This document shows positions 2,356 through 29,661 of a stretch of DNA of 41,923 bases, in pieces. Both the position numbers and the translations under genes were made by a program. Origin of the DNA: a virus. Its lineage: Duplodnaviria > Heunggongvirae > Uroviricota > Caudoviricetes. The stretch lies in IMG/VR virus record IMGVR_UViG_2630968543_000002; one strand, given 5' to 3'. How positions within the stretch are numbered: the first letter of the stretch is position 1; each line of letters begins with the position of its first letter. Under the pieces are notes generated by a model, which did no database searches, had not been told where the DNA came from, and saw only the letters and a list, made by a program, of their open reading frames with translations.

Positions 2356-2497
2356 GTGATATTTTTCAAGTCGGCTTAACTTTCTCACTTAATCCAACCC
2401 TCTCTGAAAATTAATGCCAGCAGATAAAGCCATGCTGAAACAGAGGCCAGGAATAAGTACCATCCTGACCATTTGCTCCAGTGCCTTAGCAGCACAC

Positions 2498-5331: not shown

Positions 5332-5916
5332 TTATTGTTTATTTTTTTCGTTCTGGTTGATGACAAATTCAATGTAACTTTCGATCTTTGCTTTCTCGGT
5401 TTCGGGTAACAATGCGTAGCGCGAGCGGTCATAGTTGATGGTCGCAGGGTCGTGCGGGTGAATCAGTAATTCATAGCCGTGACGCCCGAATGCGGATGCA
5501 ACATTCTCCAGGGTGGAAATGGAAACGCTGACCTCATTGTTTAACAGGCGGCTGATTGTTACCTGGGCGACGCCGGATGCGCGGTGAAGTTTTCCCTGTG
5601 TTGAAAGGTCGCGGCTTTCGCTCATCCAGCGTTCCAGGTTGTGAGCCGCCAGCTGACCAATGTCGCTTGGGCCGACAGGCTGAAAACCTTCCTGAGAAAG
5701 CGAGCGATCGATATCAAGCCAGTTACGGGGTTTATTGGCGGCAGCTTCAATTTTTCGCGCAACCTGGTCGCCGATAACCTTCTTGCCAAGAGCCCAGCGG
5801 TTTACCAGATTTGCCTGAGTTCCAAGTTTTTCTGCCATCCGCGTCTGAACACCATTGAATTCACGGTCGATCAAGTCGTTGAGATTTTGCCTGCGGACGT
5901 CCTGGATACTTTTCAT
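5332..5916 (-). CDS. Prophage repressor with two tandem HTH domains (CI analogue); no S24 peptidase domain evident
   Basis: 194-aa ORF with two HTH-like segments (QTRMAEKLGTQANLVNRWALGKK and GVAQVTISRLLNNEVSVSISTLENVA); divergent from the Cro-like gene across an operator-rich spacer. Confidence 0.75.
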   Translation of the reverse strand: MKSIQDVRRQNLNDLIDREFNGVQTRMAEKLGTQANLVNRWALGKKVIGDQVARKIEAAANKPRNWLDIDRSLSQEGFQPVGPSDIGQLAAHNLERWMSESRDLSTQGKLHRASGVAQVTISRLLNNEVSVSISTLENVASAFGRHGYELLIHPHDPATINYDRSRYALLPETEKAKIESYIEFVINQNEKNKQ

Positions 5917-6070: not shown

Positions 6071-6301
6071 ATGAGCGATAACGGACATTTCGATTTCAAA
6101 AAGCACTGGCTTGCACTTACTCCGGATGAGCGTGAAGCCTTCGCACAGGAAGCCGGAACGACGAGTCACTATATCCAGACTCACTTAACAGGTAAGCGCA
6201 AAATGCCAGGTAAGGTATTGATGAATGGGCTTTTTAAAGCCTGTAAAACAAGACAATGGCTGCGCTCAAAAGCAGAACTGGCATACTTCTTCTACTCATG
6301 A
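6071..6301 (+). CDS. Cro-like small DNA-binding protein
   Basis: 76-aa ORF divergent from the repressor, followed by a terminator; putative HTH segment EAFAQEAGTTSHYIQTHLTGKRKMP. Confidence 0.65.
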   Translation: MSDNGHFDFKKHWLALTPDEREAFAQEAGTTSHYIQTHLTGKRKMPGKVLMNGLFKACKTRQWLRSKAELAYFFYS

Positions 6302-6323
6302 TATCCATCCACAACCCTCTGTA

Positions 6324-6348
6324 GACCGCCATCCGGCGGTCTTTTCAT
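6324..6348 (+). terminator. Rho-independent terminator after cro (tR1-like)
   Basis: GACCGCC-ATCC-GGCGGTC hairpin followed by TTTTCAT. Confidence 0.6.
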
Positions 6349-6356
6349 ATCTATTC

Positions 6357-6371
6357 GTACCTCAAAGGTAA
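6357..6371. promoter_or_regulatory. Operator-like site GTACC-TCAAA-GGTAA (one mismatch) just downstream of the cro terminator
   Basis: Direct reading. Confidence 0.4.
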
Positions 6372-6451
6372 TAAAAAACCAAATCTGGTTGATCTTTTTT
6401 TTGTGTCAGCACAAAATGACCGTAATCCCAATACTAATAACAGGGCTTACC

Positions 6452-6652
6452 ATGGAAATCATTACACGTATTGATGCCGCAAAGCGCGGACTTAAACGCT
6501 ACTACACCGGAAAACCATGTAAGCACGGACATGACAGTGAACGCTGGGTTTACAACGGACACTGTGTTGAGTGCACTATGGAATCAAACCGTCGCATCAG
6601 GGCAGAGATTAAGCAGATCATGATTAATTCCTCCCCACAACATTCAAGCTGA
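6452..6652 (+). CDS. Hypothetical Cys/His-rich protein (CKHGHD...GHCVEC, possible zinc ribbon); sits where lambda carries cII; start uncertain (ORF opens at 6389)
   Basis: ORF 6389..6652; internal ATG at 6452 gives a 66-aa product. Confidence 0.45.
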   Translation: MEIITRIDAAKRGLKRYYTGKPCKHGHDSERWVYNGHCVECTMESNRRIRAEIKQIMINSSPQHSS

Positions 6653-6667
6653 TAGCGGAGATTAATC

Positions 6668-7483
6668 ATGAGCAGACATGCAACAGATTGGGCCTGGGAG
6701 ACAGATCCAGGTAGCTCGTCATTAAAGCTCATACTGCTCTCGATGGCTGACAGAGCCGATGAATATAACCTCTGCTACCCCAGCATAGAACGCCTCGTTA
6801 AAGACACTTGCCTGAATAAAAAAACCGTGCAGGCCGGGCTTATATCGCTCATGAAGATGGGGCTTATTTCAGATACCGGAGAGAGAAAGGGTGCGACGAA
6901 AAGAGTGCGGGTTTTCTCTCTTAATATAACCAAAAACGGGAACATTAAAGGCAACCGGGAAGGGGGTAATGAACCCGAAAACGGTAATGTTACCGAAAAC
7001 GGGAATATACCCAAAAACGGGATGTTGAATGATCCCAAAAACGGGATGTTGAATGATCCCAAAAACGGGATCCAGAACCAGTCATATAACCAGTCATTTA
7101 ACCAAGAGAGGGAGAGCAGGACAAAAAGCGGGGATTCTGTGCCTCATGACCCCGGCGCAAACAACGCCGTGATGAATAACTTTGTTCCTCCTGGTGGGCC
7201 AGGGCAATTAGGCAAATTTGTCATGCATGAACAATGGCAGCCATCAGATGACTTTCTTCGGAAAAGCTCATTGCAGGGGATCTACCTGGACAGCCTGCCA
7301 ACGGCACAGGAGCTTGCAGAGTTCAGAATTTACTGGATGGCTGAGGGTAAGGCATACCATCAGGCACAGTGGGAGCAGAAGCTGGCAAGGCGGCTGCAGA
7401 TTAGCAGACAGAAGCAATCAACATTACCTGATAACAACGTTCCGCACTGGAACAGCCCTGAAGCGTGGGAGGATTTCTTGTGA
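6668..7483 (+). CDS. Replication initiator (lambda O analogue) with DnaT-like C-terminal domain; the gene contains the putative origin iterons
   Basis: 271-aa ORF; N-terminal winged-helix-like region (LKLILLSMADRADEYNLCYPSIERLVKDT), central NG-rich repeats encoded by the iterons, C-terminal FRIYWMAEGKAYHQAQWEQKLARRLQ; GGAG Shine-Dalgarno. Confidence 0.75.
   Translation: MSRHATDWAWETDPGSSSLKLILLSMADRADEYNLCYPSIERLVKDTCLNKKTVQAGLISLMKMGLISDTGERKGATKRVRVFSLNITKNGNIKGNREGGNEPENGNVTENGNIPKNGMLNDPKNGMLNDPKNGIQNQSYNQSFNQERESRTKSGDSVPHDPGANNAVMNNFVPPGGPGQLGKFVMHEQWQPSDDFLRKSSLQGIYLDSLPTAQELAEFRIYWMAEGKAYHQAQWEQKLARRLQISRQKQSTLPDNNVPHWNSPEAWEDFL
6929..7072. repeat. Origin-like iteron array: six copies of CC(A/G)AAAACGG(G/T)A, the last three as 24-bp tandem repeats, followed by AACCAGTCAT direct repeats
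   Basis: Direct reading (copies at about 6930, 6975, 6993, 7011, 7035, 7059). Confidence 0.7.
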
Positions 7484-8265
7484 ACAACGTTTTTACCGCG
7501 ATACAAAACCGTGACGGAGAAGCCCTTTCTCGCATGTCAGGTTATGAGCATCAGTACGTCAACAATGACAATGTGGTGAACATGTCAGCAGAGAGGCTTG
7601 TTGATGCCCTTTTCAAACAGCTGAAACAACTGTTTCCGGCGGCAGTAGTAACCAACCTGAAGACGCCAGAGCAGGAAGTTGCTGCAAAACAGCAGTGGAT
7701 TGCTGCGTTTGCCGAAGGGGGGATCCGAACCCGTGAACAGGTTTCTGCTGGTATGCGCCACGCCCGCGCCAGTGAATCTCCGTTCTGGCCGTCGCCAGGG
7801 CAATTCATCAAGTGGTGTAAAGACAGCAAGATGGTTCTTGGCGTCACCATTGACGATGTGATGGCGGAGTTTCACCGGTACAGCAAGGAAAAAAGTTTAT
7901 ATCCTGGTGGTCCCGAAAGATTCCCGTGGCGACATCCGGTTATGTACTGGGTCGTATGTGATACCCGCCGTGCAATGTATCAGCGCCAGCTTAGCGAGAT
8001 TGAGGTTGAGAAACACGCGCGCAGGCTGCTCGATGATTGGGCGAAAAAGGTAGCTTCCGGACAGCAGATACCCGATCCGGTGATCAGCATACAGGCAAAG
8101 CCAGAACCCATGAGTACGCCTCCGGACACAGGGAGAGACGTTTACCATCCACCAGGGCGAAGTTTCGGGTGCATGCCTAACGCCGCCACCCTTGGGGGAA
8201 TAACACCGGCGCAGTGGCTGATGGAGGAATACAGGCGGGGAAAGGCGGCAGGATTTATCAAGTAA
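7480..8265 (+). CDS. Lambda P-like replication protein (helicase loader)
   Basis: Matches lambda P as recalled (REQVSAGMRHARASESPFWPSPGQFIKWC versus lambda MEQVNAGMRVARRQNRPFLPSPGQFVAWC); GTG start at 7480 with GGGAGG 7 nt upstream, GTGA overlap with the O-like stop. Confidence 0.85.
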   Translation: MNNVFTAIQNRDGEALSRMSGYEHQYVNNDNVVNMSAERLVDALFKQLKQLFPAAVVTNLKTPEQEVAAKQQWIAAFAEGGIRTREQVSAGMRHARASESPFWPSPGQFIKWCKDSKMVLGVTIDDVMAEFHRYSKEKSLYPGGPERFPWRHPVMYWVVCDTRRAMYQRQLSEIEVEKHARRLLDDWAKKVASGQQIPDPVISIQAKPEPMSTPPDTGRDVYHPPGRSFGCMPNAATLGGITPAQWLMEEYRRGKAAGFIK

Positions 8266-8270
8266 TACCA

Positions 8271-8290
8271 GCGCGATAGCGCATTTTTTT
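8271..8290 (+). terminator. Weak terminator-like element after the P-like gene
   Basis: 4-bp GC stem (GCGC-GATA-GCGC) followed by seven T. Confidence 0.3.
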
Positions 8291-8302
8291 ACGTCTCGAT
8301 AA

Positions 8303-8317
8303 TTACCTGTGAGGTAA
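8303..8317. promoter_or_regulatory. Perfect operator palindrome TTACC-TGTGA-GGTAA, immediately preceded by GATAAT (-10-like)
   Basis: Direct reading. Confidence 0.55.
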
Positions 8318-8364
8318 TAAAATATTCTAAACTCTATTGATTTCGTGTCTTATGTGGTTTTTAA

Positions 8365-8379
8365 TTACCTCAGGGGTAA
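8365..8379. promoter_or_regulatory. Perfect operator palindrome TTACC-TCAGG-GGTAA, 4 nt upstream of the 8383 start codon; TATGTGGTT motif 5 bp upstream (8351..8359)
   Basis: Direct reading. Confidence 0.55.
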
Positions 8380-8382
8380 ATT

Positions 8383-8730
8383 ATGAGAAAACAGATACAG
8401 GCTCTTGGTCGACTCAAAACAGGCCAGATGAACAAAACAGAATCTGCGTATTGCCAGCACCTTGAGATGCGTAAACGTGCAGGAGAAATCGTCTGGTATC
8501 GATTTGAGGGTATCAAGCTGCGGTTAGCTGACAACACGTTCTATACGCCCGATTTTGCTGTGATGCTCGCCACCGGCGAGATGGAGCTGCACGAAGTGAA
8601 AGGGGGATTCTGGACCGACGACGCCAGGGTGAAAACCAAAGTCGCCGCAGATCAGTATCCGTTCCGAATCATCGGGGTAACGGTTAAACCAAAGAAAGCA
8701 GGTGGTGGCTGGAACATCGAAGAGTTCTGA
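8383..8730 (+). CDS. PD-(D/E)XK nuclease-like protein (resembles DUF1064)
   Basis: 115-aa ORF with putative PD...E.K motif (YTPDFAVM...ELHEVKGG). Confidence 0.6.
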   Translation: MRKQIQALGRLKTGQMNKTESAYCQHLEMRKRAGEIVWYRFEGIKLRLADNTFYTPDFAVMLATGEMELHEVKGGFWTDDARVKTKVAADQYPFRIIGVTVKPKKAGGGWNIEEF

Positions 8731-8791
8731 ATCGACGATCTTTTTAGTTATCAATGTAATCAATAAGTTATGTGGATAAGCGAGGGTAAAG

Positions 8792-9424
8792 ATGGAAAGT
8801 AATATCAAAGGGTTAGTTGCCGCCGGGCATGAGATGGCTTCGGAACTGAAAGCAGAATGTGGTGCCGTTGATATGCGCAGTGTGGCAAAGCTGCTCAGCG
8901 ATTTGGCAACGCAACTGGAAGTGCAACTGGTGCGTGCTAATGTGCTGGCCGAAGACCAGCAGAAAGCGATTGAGTCAATTAAGCAGGCTGATTCGGCTGT
9001 TAAGTTGGCACACGAGAAGTTTTCGGCGCTGGCGGCGGAGAATGCGGGGCTGAAACATGCAATGGCTGTAACTCTTGAGCATGTGTCGGTCACGGATGCA
9101 GGGCAGGCCGGAGTTGCTGCAATGATTATCAACGATGCCCTGCACCACAGCGAAACTCCAGCCACCGATGCTTTTCTGGCTGAAATTCGTGCGGAGGCTC
9201 GCAACGAGGGGATTAACTATACCGCAAGCCGTCTTGCTGCTGCTTTCAACCACGGATTTATCAATAAGTCTTTACGTGAAGTTTTCGACGTTACACGCAT
9301 GATTCTGTCAGCGAAAGAAGAGTTGGCTAATGAACCGCACCCGATTGATGGCCTGTCCGGTGAATATGCGGAGAAATCCCTTGAAGAATGGGCGGAACAG
9401 ATTCGCAAAGGAGCTGACAAGTGA
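8792..9424 (+). CDS. Coiled-coil protein, paralogue A (possibly Ead/Ea22-like; unverified)
   Basis: 210-aa ORF; C-terminal about 90 aa (TPATDAFLAEIRAEARNEGINYTA...EEWAEQIRKGADK) paralogous to the C-terminus of 9840..10640; GAGGG Shine-Dalgarno. Confidence 0.6.
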   Translation: MESNIKGLVAAGHEMASELKAECGAVDMRSVAKLLSDLATQLEVQLVRANVLAEDQQKAIESIKQADSAVKLAHEKFSALAAENAGLKHAMAVTLEHVSVTDAGQAGVAAMIINDALHHSETPATDAFLAEIRAEARNEGINYTASRLAAAFNHGFINKSLREVFDVTRMILSAKEELANEPHPIDGLSGEYAEKSLEEWAEQIRKGADK

Positions 9425-9831
9425 AGAAGATGATTTTTGTCGCGGCATTGTTGGTGAATATCCAACAAGTGCATGCTTCAGCAGCTATTGTAGCCTCTAC
9501 CGCCGCGACTACGGCTGCTGTAGCTGCTGCGAACTCTGCGAATATCGCAAACCAACAGGCACAGCGTGCTGCTAATGCATCAGCCAGCGTTCACTCAATC
9601 ACCATTAAGAGCAGTAAGCAAAATCTGGGATTCATAACGTGCGGCACGCGTTCTAATGAAGCTGTAGGTTCACTTGGATGTACGGTATATGGGGGTAGTG
9701 AGAATAGAGAAATTCCATGGAAAACGTGGCCCGGATACGTTCTTGGCTCGAAGCTCCCGGCCAGTTATGAAGTAAACGCCGTATCGTTTGATCACTATAA
9801 CGGCGTGGCAACGGTCTATTTTGCATATTGA
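9421..9831 (+). CDS. Secreted/periplasmic protein of unknown function (N-terminal signal peptide)
   Basis: GTG start overlapping the upstream stop (GTGA); MKKMIFVAALLVNIQQVHA signal-like N-terminus, then an Ala/Asn/Gln-rich segment. Confidence 0.6.
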   Translation: MKKMIFVAALLVNIQQVHASAAIVASTAATTAAVAAANSANIANQQAQRAANASASVHSITIKSSKQNLGFITCGTRSNEAVGSLGCTVYGGSENREIPWKTWPGYVLGSKLPASYEVNAVSFDHYNGVATVYFAY

Positions 9832-9839
9832 GGCTCCGC

Positions 9840-10640
9840 ATGAAATTCTCCAAATTTTCTGAGTTGGTGAATCGTATTTTGTTGAATCGTATTTTGTCCA
9901 ACAACCACAGCCATCGTCGCGATATGGATGTAACGATCGTTGTTCATTCGCCTGGCAGCATTGGTTCAACACCCTCAGTTGAGGTTCAGTCAATTCACGC
10001 TGGTTTTGATTGGGATTCCGGGAAAGTGCTGATTTTCCCAGCACAGCCACTGACCACGCTAACACCAGAACAGATTACTGATATTACTGATAGTGTGCGC
10101 AAAGGTCAGTCCTGGCACGCATATCAGGAATACAAGAAGCATCAAGAGCAGTTGGAAAAATTATCGATTGAACTTGATACCGCAAAACAGCGCATTGCAG
10201 AGCTGGAGGGTAATCGCGCGGCGCTGGCTGCGGAGAATGCGAGACTGAAGGCGATATGTGAGGATCGCCGCACGTTCATTATGAATGGCGTGCAGCTTGG
10301 TTTTATCAAGGTGCCAACAGTGGAAATAGATCCAGCTCTTGAAACAATTCGTATCGCCCTATCACCACAAAAAACCACTCCTGCGACCGACACTTTCCTG
10401 GATGAAGTGAAGACTGAAGCACGCAAGGAGGGCGCTTACTTTGTGGCGAATAGAATGCTGGCTGCCTGGGAAGCTGGTTTTATTGATGATACTGCGAAGA
10501 ACGCCGCGGATATTGCCCGGATGATTCTTACCTCTACTGAGTTTATGGCTAATGCGCGGGAAGGCGATTTTGACCGCTCATTCTCTGATGGTGTTCTCGA
10601 AGATATCGCTGAACAGCTTCGCAAAGGAGGCAGCCAGTGA
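9840..10640 (+). CDS. Coiled-coil protein, paralogue B (possibly Ead/Ea22-like; unverified)
   Basis: ATG at 9840 with GAGG upstream; C-terminus TPATDTFLDEVKTEARKEGAYFVA...EDIAEQLRKGGSQ aligns with paralogue A; shared ALAAENA(G/R)LK coiled-coil segment. Confidence 0.6.
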   Translation: MKFSKFSELVNRILLNRILSNNHSHRRDMDVTIVVHSPGSIGSTPSVEVQSIHAGFDWDSGKVLIFPAQPLTTLTPEQITDITDSVRKGQSWHAYQEYKKHQEQLEKLSIELDTAKQRIAELEGNRAALAAENARLKAICEDRRTFIMNGVQLGFIKVPTVEIDPALETIRIALSPQKTTPATDTFLDEVKTEARKEGAYFVANRMLAAWEAGFIDDTAKNAADIARMILTSTEFMANAREGDFDRSFSDGVLEDIAEQLRKGGSQ

Positions 10641-11140
10641 GCGAGCTTTACTATCAGACGTTACGTGAACGTTTTTCACCGAAACCAGCGCCTAAATGCT
10701 CTGTTTGTGGCGAGGAAATGTCAATACAGCGCATATCTGGAGCACATGTTGTTTATGCCTGTTCCGGTGAGGGTGATGACGGATATTTTAAGATAGGGCG
10801 TACTTTTGCAGACGAACATTATGAAAAATCACGCGTAACAGTAGTTGATGATAGTGATCCCGATGTGATTGCACTACTGGACGAACTGGAGGCAGCAAAA
10901 TCAAAACTCAACGAGCAGCGCGAGTATTACGAGGGAGTTATCTCTGATGGGTGCAAGCGTATTGCTGAACTGGAAGCGCGGGAAGTTCAATTACCGACTC
11001 GCTACGACCTTCGATATGGACACCCGATAAATGCAGATGAGCGACAAGTCATGATACCTAAAGAAAATGGCAGTTGGCTTTACCTGATTGACCTAGAACA
11101 CGCATTACGCGTCGCTGACATTCGCATCAAAGGAGAGTGA
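10637..11140 (+). CDS. Hypothetical protein with N-terminal Cys cluster (CSVCGEE...YAC)
   Basis: GTG start with AGGAGG upstream and GTGA overlap with the preceding stop. Confidence 0.55.
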   Translation: MSELYYQTLRERFSPKPAPKCSVCGEEMSIQRISGAHVVYACSGEGDDGYFKIGRTFADEHYEKSRVTVVDDSDPDVIALLDELEAAKSKLNEQREYYEGVISDGCKRIAELEAREVQLPTRYDLRYGHPINADERQVMIPKENGSWLYLIDLEHALRVADIRIKGE

Positions 11141-11141
11141 T

Positions 11142-11405
11142 ATGGCAACTTTGACAAAAAAAGAACAAGCATGGTTGAGCGAATTACAGGACGTTCTTGA
11201 TCGCTGCCCATCACCGAAAAAAATTGGTTTTTACACCATTGGCGATAAAAGCATTTACCTGTATGACCTGCGCCGCATGGATGAAATCATGGAGGCTCTT
11301 GATAATCGTTCGTCAATGGATTGGTGTGTTGCTGTTCATGATATGAATGCCGGATTTGATGAAAAGATTTTATTCCCCTCATCAGTTGAAAGTACAGCAG
11401 GATAA
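11142..11405 (+). CDS. Hypothetical protein (87 aa)
   Basis: ORF starts 1 nt after the upstream stop. Confidence 0.5.
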   Translation: MATLTKKEQAWLSELQDVLDRCPSPKKIGFYTIGDKSIYLYDLRRMDEIMEALDNRSSMDWCVAVHDMNAGFDEKILFPSSVESTAG

Positions 11406-11415
11406 GGACTAACAC

Positions 11416-12153
11416 ATGACCACTATTACCAAAGAGCGACTGCTGACAATCAGGCAGTGGCGCGAAACATACGGACCTGGTAGCAACGTTGTACTGCCAG
11501 CAGAAGAAGCGGAAGAACTGGCACGAATTGCTCTGGCATCGCTGGAAGCAGAGCCGATAGGTTTCCGTTGCAGGCGCAATGATAACCTTGGTGATTGGAG
11601 TTACGTATATCATCGAGAGCCAGATGATTTTGAGCGCAAACATTTAGTGATAGAGGGCATTTACGCCGCCCCTCCAGCACCGGTAGTGCCTGAAGAAGCA
11701 ACTCCGGAAAACGTAGAAATGCTCTCTGGCTATGTTTCAACGTACAAATTAACCGATAGCGAGCGCGATATTGCTGCCGAAATATGGAACGCCTGCCGCG
11801 CCGCCATGCTTCAGTCCGGAAACTTTCGGGAAAATAAGGATTCGTCAACCAATAATTTTCGGGAAACCTCGGAAACGTCAACCAACTCTCCGGTAACTCC
11901 GGATGGTTGGGTTATGGTGCCGAAGAAACTAACCGCTGAGAACGGCGCTAAGGGTGTGCTATCCGGTGAATTTTCAGAAACTACGTTTATAAGCTGCCCG
12001 GAATGCTTTGGCGATGATGATTGCGATACCTGTGACGGGAGCGGACGAATTGAAATTAAAGTACCAGTCACGTGGACGACCATAAAATCCATCTGGGATA
12101 AAGGTATTGCGCATTTTGCAGCAAAACCGCCGCAGGAGGTTAACCGTGGCTAA
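11416..12153 (+). CDS. Hypothetical protein with C-terminal zinc-finger-like motif (CPECFGDDDCDTCDGSG) and short internal repeats
   Basis: 245-aa ORF; GGA Shine-Dalgarno-like sequence upstream. Confidence 0.55.
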   Translation: MTTITKERLLTIRQWRETYGPGSNVVLPAEEAEELARIALASLEAEPIGFRCRRNDNLGDWSYVYHREPDDFERKHLVIEGIYAAPPAPVVPEEATPENVEMLSGYVSTYKLTDSERDIAAEIWNACRAAMLQSGNFRENKDSSTNNFRETSETSTNSPVTPDGWVMVPKKLTAENGAKGVLSGEFSETTFISCPECFGDDDCDTCDGSGRIEIKVPVTWTTIKSIWDKGIAHFAAKPPQEVNRG

Positions 12154-12427
12154 CCTGCAACTTGCCGTCAAAGGTGAATACTTCGATGCCATGATTCGCG
12201 GAGAGAAAACGGAAGAGTATCGCCTGTGTAATGACTACTGGAATAAGCGCCTCGTTAACCGTAAGTATGACCGCCTGATTATCACAAAGGGATATCCGAA
12301 GCGCGAAGACTTCAGTCGCAGAATTGACGTCCCGTATAACGGATATGAAATAAAAACAATCACACATCCACACTTCGGTGATAAACCGGTAAAGGTGTTC
12401 GCGATAAAGGTAAATATTGATGGCTAA
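12146..12427 (+). CDS. ASCH/PUA-like domain protein (resembles DUF3850)
   Basis: GTG start with AGGAGG 6 nt upstream; N-terminus LQLAVKGEYFDAMIRGEKTEEYR matches the ASCH-type pattern. Confidence 0.55.
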   Translation: MANLQLAVKGEYFDAMIRGEKTEEYRLCNDYWNKRLVNRKYDRLIITKGYPKREDFSRRIDVPYNGYEIKTITHPHFGDKPVKVFAIKVNIDG

Positions 12428-12758
12428 ATCAGCAGCAGAGCGCAAAGCCGCTCAGAGAGCCAGACAAGCTGCATCTGGTGTGCGTAAGCTGGAGATTGTG
12501 CTTGATGCTCAGGAAATTGAAATGCTTGAGCGTAACTGTGCCGCGCGTCGCCCCGGGCGTGCGCCTTACGAATTTGGTGAGTATATAGCGTTACTGATCC
12601 GCCAAGATGATGCACGCGTGCACGGGCGTATAAAATCGATCAGCAGAAAACGTTGCGGTAAGTGCGGCGAGAGAGTTCCTGTGAATTCATGCCCGTGTAA
12701 TGGTGACTCGCAATGCTGGGTGACTAAAGGCTGGCATGAAACGAAATTAATAGTGTGA
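12420..12758 (+). CDS. Hypothetical protein with C-terminal Cys cluster (CGKCGERVPVNSCPCNGDSQC); last gene before the late operon, possible late-gene regulator (inference)
   Basis: 112-aa ORF; its stop codon lies inside the GTGACATGTCAC palindrome. Confidence 0.5.
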   Translation: MAKSAAERKAAQRARQAASGVRKLEIVLDAQEIEMLERNCAARRPGRAPYEFGEYIALLIRQDDARVHGRIKSISRKRCGKCGERVPVNSCPCNGDSQCWVTKGWHETKLIV

Positions 12759-12766
12759 CATGTCAC
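12755..12766. repeat. Perfect 12-bp palindrome GTGACATGTCAC, copy 1 of 3
   Basis: Direct reading. Confidence 0.7.
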
Positions 12767-12807
12767 GAGTAGATTATGCATGATGAATTTGATGGGTTTT
12801 GAATACT

Positions 12808-12834
12808 GCCGCCAACTATGGCGGCTTTATTTTG
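12808..12834 (+). terminator. Rho-independent terminator between the early-right genes and the late operon
   Basis: GCCGCCA-ACTA-TGGCGGC hairpin followed by TTTATTTTG. Confidence 0.55.
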
Positions 12835-12844
12835 CATGGTACTA

Positions 12845-12877
12845 TTACCACAACGGTAACAATTACCAGGGTGGTTA
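12845..12877. promoter_or_regulatory. Late-operon control region: perfect site TTACC-ACAAC-GGTAA (12845..12859) preceded by TACTAT, plus degenerate site TTACC-AGGGT-GGTTA (12863..12877) ending 2 nt before the terS start
   Basis: Direct reading. Confidence 0.55.
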
Positions 12878-12879
12878 TA

Positions 12880-13473
12880 ATGCCTGCTGAACCTAAAACC
12901 TATAAACGCAAATCAACGCAATTTAAGCCGCTCACAGCAATGCAGGAGGCTTATTGCCAGTCATACATCAAAACGCCTGAAAACCAGACTCAGGCTGCGA
13001 TTAACGCAGGATTCTCCCCAAATACAGCGGCAGTTAAAGCCAGTGTTATGATGCGCGATGAACGCATTCAAAAACGGATTGCCGAGTTGATGGAGGAGCG
13101 CAACAAACGAATGCGCGTCAGTGCTGATTACGTTCTCATGCGCCTGGTGGAGATCGACCAGATGGACGTGATCGATATCCTCAACGACGATGGGAGCCTT
13201 AAACCAATCCGTGAGTGGCCGAAAATCTGGCGCACTACGCTTAGCGGCTTTGATCTGTCATCGACCATCATGAACATGAACGAGGACTCGATAGAGACAA
13301 TCCTCAAAAAAATTAAATGGCCTGACAAGGTGAAGAACCTAGAACTGATTGGTAAGCACGTCGACGTCAACGCATTCAAAGAACGCCTGGATGTTAATGT
13401 GAATGTGACAATTGCTGATCGCATAGCGGCAGCCAGGAAGCGACTCAAAGAACGTCAGGATGGTAATCAGTGA
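12880..13473 (+). CDS. terS: Terminase small subunit
   Basis: Position directly upstream of and overlapping the large terminase (GTGA); basic HTH-like N-terminus; ORF opens at 12799 but a terminator and operators occupy 12808..12877, so ATG 12880 is preferred. Confidence 0.65.
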   Translation: MPAEPKTYKRKSTQFKPLTAMQEAYCQSYIKTPENQTQAAINAGFSPNTAAVKASVMMRDERIQKRIAELMEERNKRMRVSADYVLMRLVEIDQMDVIDILNDDGSLKPIREWPKIWRTTLSGFDLSSTIMNMNEDSIETILKKIKWPDKVKNLELIGKHVDVNAFKERLDVNVNVTIADRIAAARKRLKERQDGNQ

Positions 13474-14945: not shown

Positions 14946-15019
14946 TCCGCTGGTGGGGATAATGTCGTTGATATCCTCTGATGAGGATAAAACAAAGCCA
15001 GCTCATCGGCTGGCTGTTT

Positions 15020-15031
15020 GTGACATGTCAC
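15020..15031. repeat. Perfect 12-bp palindrome GTGACATGTCAC, copy 2 of 3
   Basis: Direct reading; lies between convergent terL and the minus-strand ORF. Confidence 0.7.
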
Positions 15032-15035
15032 GGTG

Positions 15036-15455
15036 TTACTTAATGGCATTAAATCCAGCGTTGATGGCTTCCGCAATATTGATGGCTCTTGTTTTATCGA
15101 AGTGCCCATTCTGAATAAGCGTCGCATGCAGGCATTGTAACTTCATGTTGTATAAGTGTTCGCTCATGTAATCATGATCACTTTTTGCTTTAGCGTAAAC
15201 AGCGCGAGAAATATCAAACATATCGCCTTTTTCCATTTCAGAACGTTGTGCTGTTATCCAGTCATGGAACGTAACGCTAGTACCATGGTCTTCGCTAAGA
15301 GTTAACCCGGCCAGTCCCTCACTCTGAATTACTTCGTAATGCATTTCATTACCAGCAAAAACGCCATAAAAAACGCAGTCTTCAGCTTGAACGATACGAG
15401 AATATTTTAATGGCCATTCATTTAGATACTTAGCCAACATATCAATTGTTTTCAT
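15036..15455 (-). CDS. Hypothetical protein (139 aa) of unknown function, encoded opposite to the structural genes (moron-like)
   Basis: ORF with AAGGTGA Shine-Dalgarno 5 nt upstream; on the same strand and downstream of the phage tRNA; no recognisable motifs. Confidence 0.6.
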   Translation of the reverse strand: MKTIDMLAKYLNEWPLKYSRIVQAEDCVFYGVFAGNEMHYEVIQSEGLAGLTLSEDHGTSVTFHDWITAQRSEMEKGDMFDISRAVYAKAKSDHDYMSEHLYNMKLQCLHATLIQNGHFDKTRAINIAEAINAGFNAIK

Positions 15456-15653: not shown

Positions 15654-15730
15654 TGGCGCGGCATGCAGGATTCGAACCTGCGACCAACCGCTTAGAAGGC
15701 GGTTGCTCTGTCCAACTGAGCTAATGCCAC
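15654..15730 (-). tRNA. tRNA-Arg (anticodon UCU), phage-encoded, 77 nt with encoded CCA
   Basis: Manual fold: acceptor GUGGCAU/AUGCCGC, D-arm GCUC-AGUUGGACA-GAGC, anticodon stem ACCGC/GCGGU with loop CUUCUAA, T-arm GCAGG-UUCGAAU-CCUGC; close to, but distinct from, E. coli argU as recalled. Confidence 0.85.
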
Positions 15731-16052
15731 AACGCTGAGAGCACTTAGCCTGTTAAGGCGCCACACTTTGTCGCGGCTCCATAAATGCTCTCATCGTTGT
15801 ACCCTCGTCTCTTCCGAGGTGTCACACCGAATCGCCGGGATGGTGAATCCCCGTGCGCGGAATAAAACCGCTCGACTTGCACATTCCGGCTACCTGGTTC
15901 GTTTGCCCGAGCAAGGGAGGGTGCCCCTTAAACGTATCCAGACCGCTATCGGCGCATGTGCCATACGCCGTACTGCTCAAAATAAAAGCTCACCCCACCT
16001 GTTCAATTTAACGACAAGCCAGTCAGATTAGTAACTGGAGTGAATTCTTTGA

Positions 16053-16067
16053 TTACCTGAAAGGTAA
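16053..16067. promoter_or_regulatory. Perfect operator palindrome ATTACC-TGAAA-GGTAAT upstream of the portal operon; TATGTGGTT motif 44 bp downstream (16111..16119)
   Basis: Direct reading. Confidence 0.55.
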
Positions 16068-16157
16068 TAATTCGCGCATTAAATGTCAACTGTCTACGAT
16101 AAATAAATCATATGTGGTTAAATTGGTAATAATTTAATTGCGTACGGAGTCATTGAT

Positions 16158-16364
16158 ATGTGCATGGGTAGCTCACCATCAGTGCCTGCAACACCAGAAG
16201 TTCAGGCAGCACCACAGGAGCAGGATGCCGCCGTTGTTGATGCCCGCGACGAAGAAACTCGTCGCCGTCGCGCTGCTGCTGGTCGTAGTTCTACGCTGCT
16301 TACCGGTTCTCAGGGCGACACATCAACCGCTAATACCAGCGGTAAAACGCTGCTTGGTCAGTAA
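16158..16364 (+). CDS. Small hypothetical protein (68 aa, low complexity) upstream of portal
   Basis: Preceded by GGAGTCATTGA, the same 11-nt initiation region that precedes the portal start (16367..16377). Confidence 0.4.
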   Translation: MCMGSSPSVPATPEVQAAPQEQDAAVVDARDEETRRRRAAAGRSSTLLTGSQGDTSTANTSGKTLLGQ

Positions 16365-16378
16365 CCGGAGTCATTGAA

Positions 16379-18058
16379 ATGGCGGAAACAACTAAAGAGC
16401 GATTGAACAAACAGTTCGCACAACTTGAAAGCGAGCGTCAGTCGTTCGAGCCGCACTGGCGCGAGTTGAGTGATTACATCAACCCGCGTGGTTCCCGCTT
16501 TCTGACTTCTGAGGTCAACCGTAACGATCGACGCAATACGCGCATTATTGATTCGACCGGGACTATGGCGGCGCGCACTCTCGCCAGCGGCATGATGTCT
16601 GGTATCACAAGCCCCGCCCGTCCGTGGTTTCGCCTGGCTACGCCAGATCCTGAAATGATGGATTATGGCCCTGTTAAGTTGTGGCTTGAGGCGGTGCAGA
16701 ACCGCATGAACGATATGTTCAATAAGTCGAATCTCTACCAGTCGCTGCCGCAGTTATACGGAAGCCTCGGCACATACAGCACTGGTGCAATGGCAGTGCT
16801 GGAGGATGACGAGGACATCATTCGCACAATGCCATTCCCGATAGGCAGTTACTACCTGGCTAACTCACCTCGTGGCAGTGTGGACACCTGTTTTCGCAAG
16901 TTCTCTATGACTGTTCGTCAGCTTGTTCAGGAGTTCGGGCTAAATAACGTCAGCGAATCTGTAAAAAGCATGTGGGAAAGCGGCACCTACGAGAAGTGGA
17001 TTGAAGTGATGCATTCGGTTTACCCGAACATTGACCGCGATACATCGAAGCTGGATAGCAAGAACAAGCCATTCAAATCGGTTTATTACGAGGTTGGTGG
17101 CGATAACGACAAGTTGTTGCGTGAGTCCGGATTCGATGAGTTTCCAATTATGGCTCCGCGCTGGGAAGTTAACGGCGAAGATGTTTATGGATCATCATGC
17201 CCGGGTATGCTGGCGCTTGGACCTGTTAAGGCATTGCAGCTTCTCCAGAAGCGTAAGTCGCAGTTGATTGATAAAGCCACCAATCCGCCGATGGTTGCTC
17301 CGAATTCCCTCAAGAATCAGCGCGCCTCCCTTCTTCCTGGTGACATCACGTATATCGATCAGATTACTGGTCAGGATGGTTTCAGGCCTGCTTATCTGGT
17401 TAACCCCAGTACAGCAGATTTGGTGGCAGACATTCAGGACACTCGTCAAATCATTAACAGCGCCTACTTTGTCGATCTGTTCATGATGTTGCAGAACATC
17501 AATACCCGCTCGATGCCTGTGGAAGCGGTGATCGAAATGAAAGAAGAAAAACTTCTGATGTTGGGGCCGGTTCTGGAGCGCCTGAACGACGAATGTCTTA
17601 ATCCTCTCATTGATCGCTCTTTCTCGATGATGGTGCGTAAAAACATGCTGCCGCCACCGCCAGACGTGATGGAAGGTATGCCCCTGAAGGTCGAATACAT
17701 TTCCGTCATGGCTCAGGCGCAGAAGTCTATCGGCCTGTCCAGTCTGGCGTCCACGGTTAACTTCATTGGTCAACTTGCGCAAGCGAAACCAGAAGCTCTC
17801 GACAAACTCAACGTTGATCAGGCGATCGATGCATTCGCTGATATGTCCGGAGTGTCTCCAACCGTCATTGTTCCGCAGGAACAGGTTGAGCAGGCTCGCC
17901 AGCAACGGGCACAGCAACAACAGCAGCAACAAATGATGGCGATGGGGATGGCGGCGGCACAGGGTGCTAAGACGCTAAGCGAAGCTAAAACTTCGGATCC
18001 GAGTGTTTTGTCAGCTATGGCGAATGCAGTTAGTGGTCAGGGTGGGCAATCACAATGA
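16379..18058 (+). CDS. Portal protein (T7 gp8-like head-to-tail connector)
   Basis: 559-aa ORF directly after terminase; Gln/Met/Ala-rich C-terminus (QQQQQQQMMAMGMAAAQGA) resembles the T7 gp8 C-terminus as recalled. Confidence 0.8.
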   Translation: MAETTKERLNKQFAQLESERQSFEPHWRELSDYINPRGSRFLTSEVNRNDRRNTRIIDSTGTMAARTLASGMMSGITSPARPWFRLATPDPEMMDYGPVKLWLEAVQNRMNDMFNKSNLYQSLPQLYGSLGTYSTGAMAVLEDDEDIIRTMPFPIGSYYLANSPRGSVDTCFRKFSMTVRQLVQEFGLNNVSESVKSMWESGTYEKWIEVMHSVYPNIDRDTSKLDSKNKPFKSVYYEVGGDNDKLLRESGFDEFPIMAPRWEVNGEDVYGSSCPGMLALGPVKALQLLQKRKSQLIDKATNPPMVAPNSLKNQRASLLPGDITYIDQITGQDGFRPAYLVNPSTADLVADIQDTRQIINSAYFVDLFMMLQNINTRSMPVEAVIEMKEEKLLMLGPVLERLNDECLNPLIDRSFSMMVRKNMLPPPPDVMEGMPLKVEYISVMAQAQKSIGLSSLASTVNFIGQLAQAKPEALDKLNVDQAIDAFADMSGVSPTVIVPQEQVEQARQQRAQQQQQQQMMAMGMAAAQGAKTLSEAKTSDPSVLSAMANAVSGQGGQSQ

Positions 18059-18351
18059 CAGATTACGAAGACGATCAACTGAAAGAAGAAAACGCCCGTA
18101 AGCAACGTGACATGGCACAGCGTGAAATTGATGACATTCGCTTTGTCATGAGCAGTGAACAGGGGCGTCGCGTTGTCTGGTCGGTGCTGGAGAAAGGCCG
18201 GGTGTTTTCCGCTATCTCTCCGATGGATGCCATGGCAATGGCATTTAATGAGGGGCAACGCAATCTGGCGCTGGAACTGTTTCAGCGCGTTATGGCGCAT
18301 TGCCCTGAACAGTATTTGAAGATGGCCAAAGAGGCCAGTGAACAGGAGTGA
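18055..18351 (+). CDS. Hypothetical virion-module protein (98 aa)
   Basis: ATGA overlap with the portal stop. Confidence 0.5.
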   Translation: MTDYEDDQLKEENARKQRDMAQREIDDIRFVMSSEQGRRVVWSVLEKGRVFSAISPMDAMAMAFNEGQRNLALELFQRVMAHCPEQYLKMAKEASEQE

Positions 18352-18353
18352 TC

Positions 18354-19049
18354 ATGAGTTTATTTGAGCGTTTGCTGTATCGCCGTCTTTGCAATGAGCA
18401 ACAAGTCGATGGTGGGGCAGCACCGGCTGCGTCAGAACCGTCAGCGCATGCAGGTGATAACCCTGCTCCAGCTGGTGATCCATCACAACAGGAAGGTGAT
18501 AAGCCACAACCTGTTGTTGATGTCGATAAACCTGATGATGAAAAAAAATCTGAAAACGATAAGCAGGGTGAAAAAAAGGACGGCGATAAACCAGAGGGTG
18601 CGCCGGAGAAGTACGAATTTCATGCTGCCGAAGGCGTAGAGCTGGATACAGAAGCGTTGAAGGAATTCGAGCCAGTGGCGCGAGAACTTAACCTGACCAA
18701 CGAGCAAGCGCAAAAGCTGGTTGATGCTTATCCGAAGATTCTGGCAGGTGTTCAGCAGCGCCAGGCAGAAGCCTGGCAGAAAACAACCGAGCAGTGGGCT
18801 GCGGATGTAAAAGCTGACAAAGAAATCGGTGGCGACAAGTTGATTTCTAACCTTAGCGCCGCACAGCGTGCGCTTGACCAGTTCGGGACACCTGAACTCA
18901 AAGAATATCTGAACACCACCGGGCTGGGTAATCACCCTGATCTGGTCAAAACGTTCGTGAAAATCGGAAAGGCGATGTCTGAAGATGGCATGGTCACCGG
19001 TGGTAATGAAGGCCAGCGTAGTGCGGCCGAAGTGCTCTATGGCAAATAA
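18354..19049 (+). CDS. Putative scaffolding / capsid assembly protein
   Basis: Position between portal and major capsid; highly acidic Lys/Asp/Glu-rich N-terminal half; GGAG Shine-Dalgarno. Confidence 0.65.
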   Translation: MSLFERLLYRRLCNEQQVDGGAAPAASEPSAHAGDNPAPAGDPSQQEGDKPQPVVDVDKPDDEKKSENDKQGEKKDGDKPEGAPEKYEFHAAEGVELDTEALKEFEPVARELNLTNEQAQKLVDAYPKILAGVQQRQAEAWQKTTEQWAADVKADKEIGGDKLISNLSAAQRALDQFGTPELKEYLNTTGLGNHPDLVKTFVKIGKAMSEDGMVTGGNEGQRSAAEVLYGK

Positions 19050-19057
19050 GAGAGGAA

Positions 19058-20050
19058 ATGACAATGGCTGTTAAAGGCTTAACTGCGCTAACGCTGGCTG
19101 ACTGGGGTAAGCGCGTCGATCCAGATGGGAAAGTCGATAAGATTATCGAGCTTCTCGGTCAAACTAACCCGATCCTTCAGGATATGCCTTTTGTCGAAGG
19201 TAACCTTCCTACCGGACACAAAACCACCATTCGTTCTGGTTTACCTTCAGCTACCTGGCGTTTGCTGAACTATGGCGTACAGCCAAGCAAATCAACCACA
19301 GTGCAGGTAACCGATTCCGTTGGCATGCTGGAAACCTATGCTGAAGTCGATAAGTCACTGGCTGATCTGAACGGTAATACCGCCGAATTCCGCCTGTCTG
19401 AAGACCGCGCATTTATTGAAGCGATGAATCAGCAGATGGCGCAGACGCTGTTTTATGGTGATTCCAGCGTTAACCCTCAGCAGTTTATGGGACTGTCCTC
19501 CCGCTATTCCAGCCTGTCTGCGGGTAATGCTCAGAACATCATTGATGCTGGTGGCACGGGTACAGATAACACCTCAATCTGGTTAGTGGTGTGGGGCGAA
19601 AACACCGTGCATGGCATCTTCCCGAAAGGGAAGAAGGCTGGCATCCAGATGGAAGATAAAGGCCAGGTGACACTGGAAGATGCTAATGGCGGCAAGTACG
19701 AAGGCTATCGCACCCATTACAAATGGGATAACGGACTTGCTCTGCGTGACTGGCGTTATGTTGTTCGCATTGCAAACATTGATGTCAGCAATCTTTCAGA
19801 ACCTTCCTCTGCCGCAAATATTGCGAAGTTGATGGTTAAAGCACTGCATCGCATTCCAAACCGTGGCATGGGCCGCCCGGTGTTCTACATGAACCGCACT
19901 GTAGGCCAGGCTCTTGATCTGCAGTCTCTGGAGAAAACATCTCTGGCGATTAGCGTAAAAGAGACTGAAGGCGAGTGGTGGACGTCATTCCGTGGTGTAC
20001 CAATCCGTGAAACTGATGCGCTTCTGGAAACAGAAGCCCGCGTGGTGTAA
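19058..20050 (+). CDS. Major capsid protein
   Basis: 330-aa ORF following the scaffold gene; GAGAGG Shine-Dalgarno; size and position typical of a T7-like or HK97-fold major capsid protein. Confidence 0.75.
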   Translation: MTMAVKGLTALTLADWGKRVDPDGKVDKIIELLGQTNPILQDMPFVEGNLPTGHKTTIRSGLPSATWRLLNYGVQPSKSTTVQVTDSVGMLETYAEVDKSLADLNGNTAEFRLSEDRAFIEAMNQQMAQTLFYGDSSVNPQQFMGLSSRYSSLSAGNAQNIIDAGGTGTDNTSIWLVVWGENTVHGIFPKGKKAGIQMEDKGQVTLEDANGGKYEGYRTHYKWDNGLALRDWRYVVRIANIDVSNLSEPSSAANIAKLMVKALHRIPNRGMGRPVFYMNRTVGQALDLQSLEKTSLAISVKETEGEWWTSFRGVPIRETDALLETEARVV

Positions 20051-20101
20051 CGCCTGTTATTAACCTGTGGGTCGCAACAGGCCCACTAATGGAGAAAGAA
20101 G

Positions 20102-20539
20102 ATGATCACCGACAAACTGTTGATGTTCTCCGAAGCACAGGCGGTAACTGATACCGCGGCTTCTACTGACGTAATCGATCTCGGTCCAATTGACGGAAAC
20201 CGTCGCGATATCGGCGTGGGTTATCCGCTTGAGTTTTGGGCGCTGGTTAACGAAGCCGCCACGGCAAGTGGTGAGGCAACTGTAAACATCCAGTTGCAGA
20301 CGAGTGAGAATAACAGCTCATGGTCCACTATTTATGATAGTGGCGCACTGGCAAAGGCCACCCTGACAGCAGGTAAGCGAGTTGTTTCTGCAAAGGTGCC
20401 AGCCGGTGTTCAGCGATATCTGCGTGTTAACTACTCCGTCGCAACTGGCCCACTAACGGCTGGCAAATTCACTGCGGGTATCAATCTTGATGTTGATGCC
20501 AATACGCCGTATCCGATCCGCTCAAAAGTAACTGGTTAA
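20102..20539 (+). CDS. Hypothetical structural protein (145 aa), possible capsid decoration or adaptor
   Basis: GGAG Shine-Dalgarno; position after the major capsid gene. Confidence 0.5.
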   Translation: MITDKLLMFSEAQAVTDTAASTDVIDLGPIDGNRRDIGVGYPLEFWALVNEAATASGEATVNIQLQTSENNSSWSTIYDSGALAKATLTAGKRVVSAKVPAGVQRYLRVNYSVATGPLTAGKFTAGINLDVDANTPYPIRSKVTG

Positions 20540-20549
20540 GGTGATATTG

Positions 20550-20885
20550 ATGTCAGGTGAGAAACCAAGATACCGCGTTCTGCGCCTCTCTCATATCCAT
20601 AACACTCTGTGGCCGGAGGGGGCAGAAATCGAATACGAAGGTGAGCCAGGTAGCGCACTGGAACCTGTTAACGATGCAGCCAGACAGGCAAAAGCAAAAG
20701 TTGCAGGAAAGGTGTCAATGGCAGCAACCAGCACCAAAATCATCAACGATGTGTCAGATGATGGTGAACTGGATAAGCTCCGTGAAGAGTACAAATTGCT
20801 CTTTAACGAGAAGCCACACCATAACGCCAAAGCAGAAACGCTCCGCGAGAAGATCGCAGATAAGCGTAAAGAACTGGGCGTGTAA
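20550..20885 (+). CDS. Hypothetical structural-module protein (111 aa)
   Basis: ATG at 20550 with AAGGTGA upstream; followed by a terminator. Confidence 0.5.
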   Translation: MSGEKPRYRVLRLSHIHNTLWPEGAEIEYEGEPGSALEPVNDAARQAKAKVAGKVSMAATSTKIINDVSDDGELDKLREEYKLLFNEKPHHNAKAETLREKIADKRKELGV

Positions 20886-20902
20886 GCCTCGCGAATCAGA
20901 CA

Positions 20903-20923
20903 AGGGGCTTCGGCCCCTTTATT
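20903..20923 (+). terminator. Rho-independent terminator or attenuator inside the structural module
   Basis: AGGGGC-TTCG-GCCCCT hairpin followed by TTATT. Confidence 0.55.
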
Positions 20924-20935
20924 GCAGGAGTGTAT

Positions 20936-21259
20936 ATGGAACTCGTAAACCTCAAAACCGGCACTGACAGCTACCAGGATGAGAGCGGAGAAACCAGAAC
21001 TCGCGATGAATACCCGTGGGGGCTGTGCATCACGCTGAATAACGACACATTGAATAAGCTGAAGGCGCAACCTCAGGGCGTCGGAACAGAAGTGATGATA
21101 ACTGCAAAGGCTGTTATTCGAGGCCTGTCTGCCAGAGAAACTGACGATGGTGTTAATCGCAGCGCCGATCTGCAGATCACTGATATGGCAATCGCTCCTG
21201 TTTCCGGTGATGTAGAAAAATCAGCGGCTGAAACTCTGTACGGCAATGGGGGTGAGTAA
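20936..21259 (+). CDS. Hypothetical structural-module protein (107 aa)
   Basis: GCAGGAG Shine-Dalgarno 5 nt upstream of ATG. Confidence 0.5.
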   Translation: MELVNLKTGTDSYQDESGETRTRDEYPWGLCITLNNDTLNKLKAQPQGVGTEVMITAKAVIRGLSARETDDGVNRSADLQITDMAIAPVSGDVEKSAAETLYGNGGE

Positions 21260-21864
21260 TGGCCTCTGTAGTAGAGATCTGCAATCGCGCGCTGTCCAAT
21301 ATTGGCAACAGCCGCAGCATTAACAGCCTGACGGAAGCCAGCAAGGAAGCGGGGGAATGTTCGCTGCACTTTGAGGCCTGCCGTGATGCTGTGCTTTCTG
21401 ATTTTGACTGGAACTTTGCTACCAAACGCGTGGCGCTTGCAGATACGAGCAATCCACCGCCTGACTGGGAATATGCGTACCAGTACCCGTCCGATTGTCT
21501 GCGCATTACTGAAATTATGCTTCATGGTGTACGCAATCCAACAGCAGCAATGCGCGTTCAGTACGAAGTTGGTGCAGACACCAACGGAACAGGAAAGTTG
21601 ATCTACACAGACCAGCCGCAGGCATGGCTCAAGTATGTCTCTCGCGTTACAGATGTGAACATGTTTGATGCCATTTTTATGGAGGCGCTGGCCTGGCGTC
21701 TTGCGGCAGCTATTAACATGGCGCTTACTGGGAATGCAGACCTCGGTACGTTTGCCCTCAATATGTACAATCGCGTGATTCTTAGTGCTGGCTCGCATAG
21801 CCAGAATGAATCACAGGAACCACAGCCACCGGTTGACGAGTTTACCATTGCGAGGTTGTCCTGA
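21259..21864 (+). CDS. Tail tubular protein A-like (T7 gp11 position)
   Basis: 201-aa ORF; N-terminal pattern (CNRALSNIGNSRSINSLTE) resembles T7 gp11 (VNDILASIGEPPVSTLEGD) as recalled; TAATG overlap. Confidence 0.6.
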   Translation: MASVVEICNRALSNIGNSRSINSLTEASKEAGECSLHFEACRDAVLSDFDWNFATKRVALADTSNPPPDWEYAYQYPSDCLRITEIMLHGVRNPTAAMRVQYEVGADTNGTGKLIYTDQPQAWLKYVSRVTDVNMFDAIFMEALAWRLAAAINMALTGNADLGTFALNMYNRVILSAGSHSQNESQEPQPPVDEFTIARLS

Positions 21865-29656: not shown

Positions 29657-29661
29657 ATTAA

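Follow-up and report, generated by a model that had tools for sequence, protein, structure and literature searches.

The window analyzed here is the whole 41,923-nucleotide (nt) stretch recorded as IMGVR_UViG_2630968543_000002, an epsilon15/phiV10-like (Uetakevirus) Escherichia coli prophage with the gene order of epsilon15-like podophages. Our subject is the region (12420–12879) where its rightward early operon ends and its late operon begins at terS, the small terminase gene. Phages of the epsilon15 type serve as reporters and biocontrol agents for O157 and Salmonella. The analysis suggests that the prophage repressor, Rep, controls the late operon directly, and that the product of the last early gene, a 112-residue protein, forms with a short palindrome a second DNA–protein pair, marking the border of the early operon (before terS here, before xis in many prophages). 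The region is 96–98% identical to E. coli O157 typing phages 9 and 10, vB_EcoP_PAS61, ZX5, TL-2011b and phiV10, and all relatives returned by a scan of IMG/VR loci were at least 96% identical. It contains the following features.

12420–12758, plus strand: gene of the 112-residue protein, with predicted ribbon-helix-helix (RHH) and four-cysteine (Cys4) modules (epsilon15 gp49/N15 gp46 family, phrog_536); last gene of the early-right operon
12755–12766: palindrome 1, GTGACATGTCAC, overlapping the TGA stop (12756–12758) of that gene; proposed cognate site
12778–12804, plus strand: mini-open reading frame (ORF) MHDEFDGF-stop, an apparent remnant of a 70-residue moron, judged from 136-nt versus 322-nt intergenic variants
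12808–12833, plus strand: intrinsic terminator of the early-right operon (stem 12808–12825, GCCGCC/GGCGGC, plus a T-run)
12837–12845, plus strand: putative extended −10 of the terS promoter, TGgTACTAT, read from the sequence; no good −35
12844–12860: operator O1, ATTACCACAACGGTAAC, of the Rep type ATTACC-N5-GGTAAT, starting inside TGgTACTAT
12862–12878: probable operator O2, ATTACCAGGGTGGTTAT, one mismatch, covering the terS Shine-Dalgarno sequence and ending one base before the ATG at 12880
12880–13473, plus strand: terS, first gene of the late operon (Pfam Terminase_2, E = 1e-29)

The initial annotation had placed a Cys-cluster protein gene last in the early-right operon, followed by a palindrome, a terminator and two operators, and each of these elements was recovered in its place. 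The terminator has an RNA folding energy of −16.2 kcal/mol (z = −4.4). Beyond it, TGn+TAYTAT is retained in all relatives, with n variable (G, T or A) and the hexamer improved to TATTAT in some, a pattern that fits a putative extended −10 promoter without a −35 element; a second −10-like sequence, AACAAT, lies downstream. The operators overlap this conserved extended −10 and the ribosome-binding site of terS. No Q homologue precedes terS: the 112-residue protein and 66 relatives had no hit to a Q family in Pfam, NCBIfam or PHROG, nor did the other ORFs scanned. A canonical antiterminator was likewise not found elsewhere, the Q and N families being matched by no ORF scanned, early or otherwise. 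A lysis cassette is also absent ahead of terS, the holin/lysis genes lying at 38838–40635, after the tailspike. On Q and on the lysis cassette the annotation is supported.

Operators of the terS type recur through the window, where ATTACC-N5-GGTAAT has 15 matches (up to 2 mismatches) against 1.1 expected. Copies occur at the immunity region and ahead of every major unit, as listed here with the repressor gene.

5197 and 5259: Rep-type operators, left of the repressor gene
5332–5916, minus strand: repressor gene Rep (PDB 5D50, SPC32H Rep, E = 4e-42; phrog_8)
5971: Rep-type operator, between the repressor and a cro-like gene
8302 and 8364: Rep-type operators, before the gene at 8383
12844 and 12862: Rep-type operators, before terS
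16052–16068: Rep-type operator, upstream of ORF 16158 and the portal unit
33031, 34079 and 34172: Rep-type operators, around the antirepressor module
35292: Rep-type operator, before the tailspike

In the epsilon15 RefSeq record, ATTACC-N5-GGTAAT features are labeled "protein_bind: repressor, lysogeny" and are placed upstream of terS, gp3/portal and the tailspike as well as in the immunity region; the counterpart of O1 (12–27) is among those annotated as repressor binding. This annotation also gives the register of the motif, and a description of the operators as GGTA-N4/5-TACC inverted repeats was dropped. Two GGTA-N4/5-TACC repeats lie inside the O-like replication initiator gene (6983–6994, 7346–7358). 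The Rep of SPC32H binds palindromic sites as a tetramer that the antirepressor Ant disassembles (PMC9638917). The window resembles that system in having the Rep homologue, an Ant gene (33120–33857, minus strand), a small antirepressor-like gene preceded by a LexA-box-like sequence, and ATTACC-N5-GGTAAT sites at lytic promoters including that of terS; it differs in that its antirepressor module also carries a C4 antisense RNA and isrK. Because the distribution of the motif, the epsilon15 annotation and the homology to SPC32H Rep agree, the direct repression at the terS promoter that the initial annotation had suggested is supported, and the control region is best read as a Rep-repressed sigma-70 promoter. 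The epsilon15 record itself already implies a late promoter that is controlled by the repressor and works without Q.

Several details of this operator network are recorded here as separate observations. The two-operator layout of terS is mirrored at 8302–8382, after the terminator that ends the replication genes, where the second operator (8364–8380) stops 2 nt short of the ATG of a DUF1064 gene (8383). Three exact copies of TATGTGGTT (8351–8359, 16111–16119 and 35339–35347; 0.37 expected) accompany the promoters of the 8383 gene, of the portal unit and of the tailspike unit, each following a Rep-type operator at a distance of 30–42 nt; the sequence could be a promoter or leader element common to these units, or could be bound by a further regulator. 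Rfam places the C4 antisense RNA at 33861–33948 and isrK at 33967–34043 (minus strand), directly upstream of ant. The C4/isrK/ant arrangement is a P1/P7-type immI module in an epsilon15-like prophage, flanked by the Rep-type operators at 34079 and 34172. Near the operator at 35292, a LexA-box-like CTGTATATTTATACAG (35238–35253) lies upstream of reverse ORF 34959–35339, whose product has an antirepressor-like C terminus (phrog_450/1760), an arrangement that recalls SOS-controlled antirepression in SPC32H.

The 112-residue protein matches the phrog_536 profile over its full length (E = 1.2e-54, residues 1–111), and the epsilon15 and phiV10 records name its homology to the epsilon15 gp49/N15 gp46 family. 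This family, which also includes phiV10 p55 and phiKO2 gp45, is small, comprising 154 clusters at 50% identity in an exhaustive search of 1.84 billion representatives, and is found almost only in Enterobacterales, Vibrio and Aeromonas. In a Pfam scan the protein and 66 diverse relatives (67 members) matched no family; sequence searches of the PDB with the 112-residue protein gave no relative, and Foldseek against the PDB nothing useful. An AlphaFold model built from the 67-sequence alignment (predicted local distance difference test, 93.6; predicted template modeling score, 0.70) has a basic N-terminal helix (residues 5–19; motif RK..QR.R, with some of the best-conserved residues), an extended segment (20–29), helices at 30–42 and 52–74, a Cys-rich stretch (79–99) and a short C-terminal helix. 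The protein thus has the strand-helix-helix fold of the RHH (MetJ/Arc/CopG) superfamily. Its C-terminal Cys cluster, CGKCGERVPVNSCPCNGDSQCW, has the CxxC...C...C pattern of a Cys4 module: C79, C82 and C99, like R8 and R13 of the basic helix, are each kept by at least 90% of the 67 diverse relatives, the family has its fourth Cys at 91–93, and in a profile search the L32 zinc ribbon was matched weakly.

On this model, the protein is probably an RHH DNA-binding protein with a zinc module, and the combination of RHH fold and Cys4 module makes it a plausible regulator. PHROG calls phrog_536 a "transcriptional regulator," a label that appears to rest on fold prediction only. Like small RHH repressors (P22 Arc and Mnt, CopG, the TacA/ParD antitoxins, AmrZ), the protein has this fold and would be expected to recognize a short symmetric operator as a dimer. 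It adds to these the conserved basic N-terminal helix and the C-terminal Cys4 module, and its operator would lie at the 3′ end of its gene, not in the promoter. Among the loci compared, no conserved partner gene stands up- or downstream of the family gene.

What accompanies the gene is the palindrome. GTGACATGTCAC occurs in three exact copies in the window (0.02 expected), and palindrome 1 is retained in relatives whose flanking sequence has diverged. Epsilon15 has it in the same three places, and phiV10 has it exactly in two, the third copy being split by the ends of the record and carrying one mismatch; in both phages the family gene is the last before terS and has its stop codon within the same palindrome. 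Across phage types whose family proteins share 30–58% identity, palindromes of this class embed the TGA stop of the family gene in the same register, as GTGACTGGTCAC in N15 gp46 and phiKO2 gp45, GTGACGCGTCAC in P2-like Yersinia phages and GTGACAGGTCAC in Pantoea phage AH07. Vibrio phage K303 has three copies, one of them 19 nt before terS. Lambda and P2, both without the family gene, have no exact palindrome.

We measured this co-occurrence in 52 GTDB loci, one genome per species, totaling 954 kb. The stop codon lies inside an exact palindrome, in the same register, at 30 of the 52 loci; at about 10 more the palindrome follows the stop by 6–200 nt, and most of the remaining loci have it elsewhere in the prophage. 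GTGAC-N2-GTCAC gave 66 sites, distributed over 48 of the 52 loci, whereas spacers of 0, 1 and 3–7 bp gave 0–2 sites each and the inverted arrangement 0–1. Flanking bases widen the symmetry to Y-GTGAC-RY-GTCAC-R (12–14 bp). Invariant 5-bp half-sites around a variable center suggest recognition by a symmetric dimer. Since the palindrome, and not the operators, follows the gene through evolution, we take the palindrome as the likely site of the 112-residue protein, and its binding there, rather than at ATTACC-N5-GGTAAT, is in our estimation quite probable. The annotation's proposal of the zinc-finger protein as a candidate regulator therefore stands in part: the RHH fold is that of a DNA binder, but the palindrome, rather than the operators, co-varies with it. 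An action at the terS operators themselves does not agree with the distance from palindrome to terS promoter, which ranges from ~55 to ~400 nt in relatives, or with the family's coexistence with Q-like proteins or an Ogr-position regulator in other phages.

In the window, each of the three palindromes is found where a transcription unit ends (3′), with an intrinsic terminator adjacent. At site 1, where the palindrome overlaps the stop of the last early-right gene, the terminator follows after 41 nt; the other two are arranged as follows.

14997–15031: bidirectional terminator hairpin, 4 nt, then palindrome 2 (15020–15031), between terL and the reverse tRNA-Arg/ORF 15036–15455 module
32294–32330: palindrome 3 (32294–32305) directly abutting a terminator hairpin, at the end of the portal-to-tail unit, after the small membrane ORF 32146–32286

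The 4-nt spacing at site 2 is retained in 7 diverged Uetakevirus-type loci, and both this spacing and that of site 3 (0–1 nt) are kept in diverged relatives despite changed hairpin sequences; in epsilon15 the counterpart of palindrome 3 overlaps the gp18 stop codon. Outside Uetakevirus-type loci the association with terminators is not upheld, but the boundary position still holds. In other prophages the palindrome lies 13–37 nt ahead of the start codon of the next gene, which in at least 13 loci is an excisionase of one of four unrelated families (DUF4224-like, AlpA-like, PrtN-like or lambda-Xis-like). In annotated genomes, 13 of 16 palindromes are intergenic or overlap a stop codon. Two exact palindromes that depart from this rule lie inside the Q-like antiterminator gene of AH07 (locus L096, 34430) and inside N15 repA (locus L007, 235; record position 33237).

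We propose that Rep, through the two 17-bp operators over the extended −10 and the terS ribosome-binding site, would hold the late genes off directly, and would likewise repress the early, portal, tailspike and antirepressor units. The terS promoter would be an extended −10 placed directly after the early-operon terminator, without a Q-type switch. The 112-residue product, as a dimeric RHH protein with a Cys4 (zinc) module, would have Y-GTGAC-RY-GTCAC-R as its target. As it accumulates, it would occupy the junctions and limit transcription from one unit into the next: from the early operon into the moron and terS here, and from the early operon into xis in other prophages. At the convergent junctions (sites 2 and 3), it would reinforce termination in both directions. 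This account as a whole, combining a Rep-controlled terS promoter with a palindrome-bound boundary repressor or roadblock, we regard as about evenly poised between right and wrong. Its weakest step is the boundary role of the 112-residue protein, which, taken alone, we advance tentatively and with some doubt.

We prefer the boundary role to that of a late-gene activator because the family coexists with Q or Ogr and often sits directly before xis. What the phages have in common is a gene that closes an early operon and a site that borders the following module. Most RHH proteins are repressors. Should the pair prove to be a barrier to transcription that the phage itself makes, it would offer a simple means of timing or insulation that can be carried from one phage type to another. 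A precedent of a kind exists in mycobacteriophage L5, whose gp71 stoperators were reportedly proposed (Brown et al., 1997) to stop elongating RNA polymerase. As in L5, a short site is repeated in tiny intergenic gaps, often over stop codons. L5 sites, however, are asymmetric, orientation-dependent, number ~24 and are bound by the prophage repressor, whereas those described here are palindromic, number 1–3 per genome and are linked to a protein of the lytic early operon rather than to Rep.

Several points count against the proposed scheme. On the Rep side, the "repressor" features of epsilon15 are themselves predictions, and O2 departs from the motif by one mismatch and is less well kept in epsilon15. 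On the side of the 112-residue protein, RHH proteins can also activate, as AmrZ does; no late activator was found, so the protein could fill that role in this genus; antitermination would also agree with the palindromes, which stand ahead of the terminators closing three consecutive rightward units; and many prophages have a single site, which discriminates little between a roadblock and simple operator repression.

The alternative that survives best takes the 112-residue protein as the missing late switch. Bound at the palindrome, it would either read through the terminators 3′ of each palindrome from the early-right promoter, into terS-terL and then the portal-tail unit, or activate the terS promoter from upstream. 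Its gene occupies the position of lambda Q, as the last early gene adjoining the late operon, no other late regulator was found among the ORFs scanned, and in this genus an intrinsic terminator follows each of the three palindromes within 0–41 nt, read along the unit that ends there. The K303 palindrome so close to terS agrees with it as well. It resembles the Q-type antiterminators in its small size and its probably zinc-binding Cys cluster; unlike those of lambda, 82 and 21, it has no homology to any Q family. The Q-type architecture of late-promoter element, pause and downstream terminator also differs from what is seen here, where the terminator (12808–12833) lies upstream of the putative promoter and the palindrome 55–400 nt upstream in relatives, a variation that counts against this reading. 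Neither the portal (16052) nor the tailspike (35292) promoter has a palindrome nearby, and in prophages with the gene linked to xis the gap from the palindrome to the following start codon is too short to hold a terminator. The family, moreover, coexists with the Q-like proteins N15 gp40, phiKO2 gp38 and AH07 gp52 and with an Ogr-position regulator in Yersinia P2-like phages, so it is not the general late switch. We consider a late-switch role in either form unlikely. A different candidate for a late-gene activator is the PerC-family "transcriptional activator" encoded in the early-left operon (2089–2388, minus strand; PF06069, phrog_868; epsilon15 gp31).

The near-identity of the palindrome to matS raises a possible link to chromosome-organizing machinery. 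matS is GTGAC-RNY-GTCAC and is reportedly avoided in prophages (PMC3603311); the consensus found here, GTGAC-RY-GTCAC, is matS minus its central base. The protein and its site could therefore be a phage version of MatP/matS that marks phage DNA non-transcriptionally, by bridging or condensing it or by displacing or evading host MukBEF/MatP. Both proteins would be RHH DNA binders with identical half-sites (GTGAC/GTCAC), a purine and a pyrimidine flanking the center, and few sites per replicon. The true 13-bp matS is absent, with 0 spacer-3 sites in the window and in the 954 kb of related loci, and the family is nearly restricted to Enterobacterales, Vibrio and Aeromonas. An alignment of the 112-residue protein to MatP by hhalign puts the RHH helices in register (E = 0.27 and 0.041), with a probability of at most 1.3%. 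The MatP homologues listed by a sequence search were all at least 97% identical. Homology to MatP is not significant: no profile hidden Markov model hit to the MatP chains in the PDB was obtained, and neither PF06303 (the MatP N-terminal domain) nor PF17414 was detectably matched. The 112-residue protein opens with its basic helix directly before the RHH strand, lacking the N-terminal four-helix domain of MatP, and has the Cys4 module in place of the C-terminal coiled coil. Because homology is not demonstrable and these two parts are absent, we do not file it as a member of the MatP family; the likeness of the sites may stem from shared ancestry, from convergence or from a functional tie to the host Ter/MukBEF system. 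The spacer is 2 bp here versus 3 in matS, many prophages have a single site, and the palindromes lie nearly always between genes and in association with gene ends, suggesting a role in gene expression. A non-transcriptional marking role is accordingly rather improbable. Slightly less probable still is its most specific form, in which the gp49/gp46 family and GTGAC-RY-GTCAC are a phage-borne counterpart of MatP/matS, one bp shorter, by which temperate phages of MatP/MukBEF-bearing gamma-proteobacteria would mark phage DNA as their own, possibly for unloading or evading the host SMC complex or for organizing phage DNA during replication, in either case without recruitment of host MatP. In the literature available, looking for the palindrome sequences and for MatP-like proteins of phages gave no account of a link between family and palindrome, of the placement of the stop codon or of the likeness to matS. 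The pairing of family and palindrome, the stop codon built into a probable binding site and the resemblance to matS are, to that extent, new here.

Least probable of all is that the palindrome is a module-junction sequence (a hotspot for recombination or moron insertion) or a host-factor site traveling with the 3′ end of the gene: morons (the 70-residue ORF or umuD-like genes) are inserted immediately after it in relatives and all three window copies lie at module junctions, but it persists where the stop codon has moved 6–26 nt away, turns up elsewhere in the same prophage when missing at the family gene, is lacking in lambda and P2, and combines strict conservation of spacer and half-sites with a free center, as expected of a symmetric dimer.

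Three further roles for the palindrome were rejected. As RNA it forms no hairpin of note (−2.9 kcal/mol, z = −0.15), which, with the opposite orientation in which site 2 is used, speaks against a role at the RNA level. A packaging-site role was considered, as sites flank terS-terL and one precedes terS in K303, but was dropped because cos phages (N15, P2-like) also carry the family and have their sites elsewhere. A promoter-like GTGACA-18-CATGAT inside or after the palindrome is at chance level and unconserved.

The segment 12767–12805, between palindrome 1 and the terminator, is a moron insertion point, for which loci L022, L091 and L098 give the comparison. The 9-codon mini-ORF within it looks like the remnant of the 70-residue moron that relatives carry there. 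In some Uetakeviruses the insertion directly 3′ of the palindrome is this 70-residue ORF and in others a umuD-like gene; in Klebsiella phage Kp4865-1 a LexA box precedes the umuD-like gene.

The remaining units of the window are arranged as follows.

1–1251: integrase
3′ of the integrase gene: leftward early operon, containing RecET, an AlpA-like gene and a PerC-like gene
~6071 to 12758: rightward early operon
After terS: terL, then a small reverse module
16158 to 32136: portal-to-tail genes
After the portal-to-tail genes: reverse accessory genes, including ant
Last units: tailspike, then holin/lysis genes at 38838–40635

The reverse module between terL and the portal gene consists of a tRNA-Arg(TCT) gene (15654–15730, minus strand) and ORF 15036–15455 (phrog_4846).

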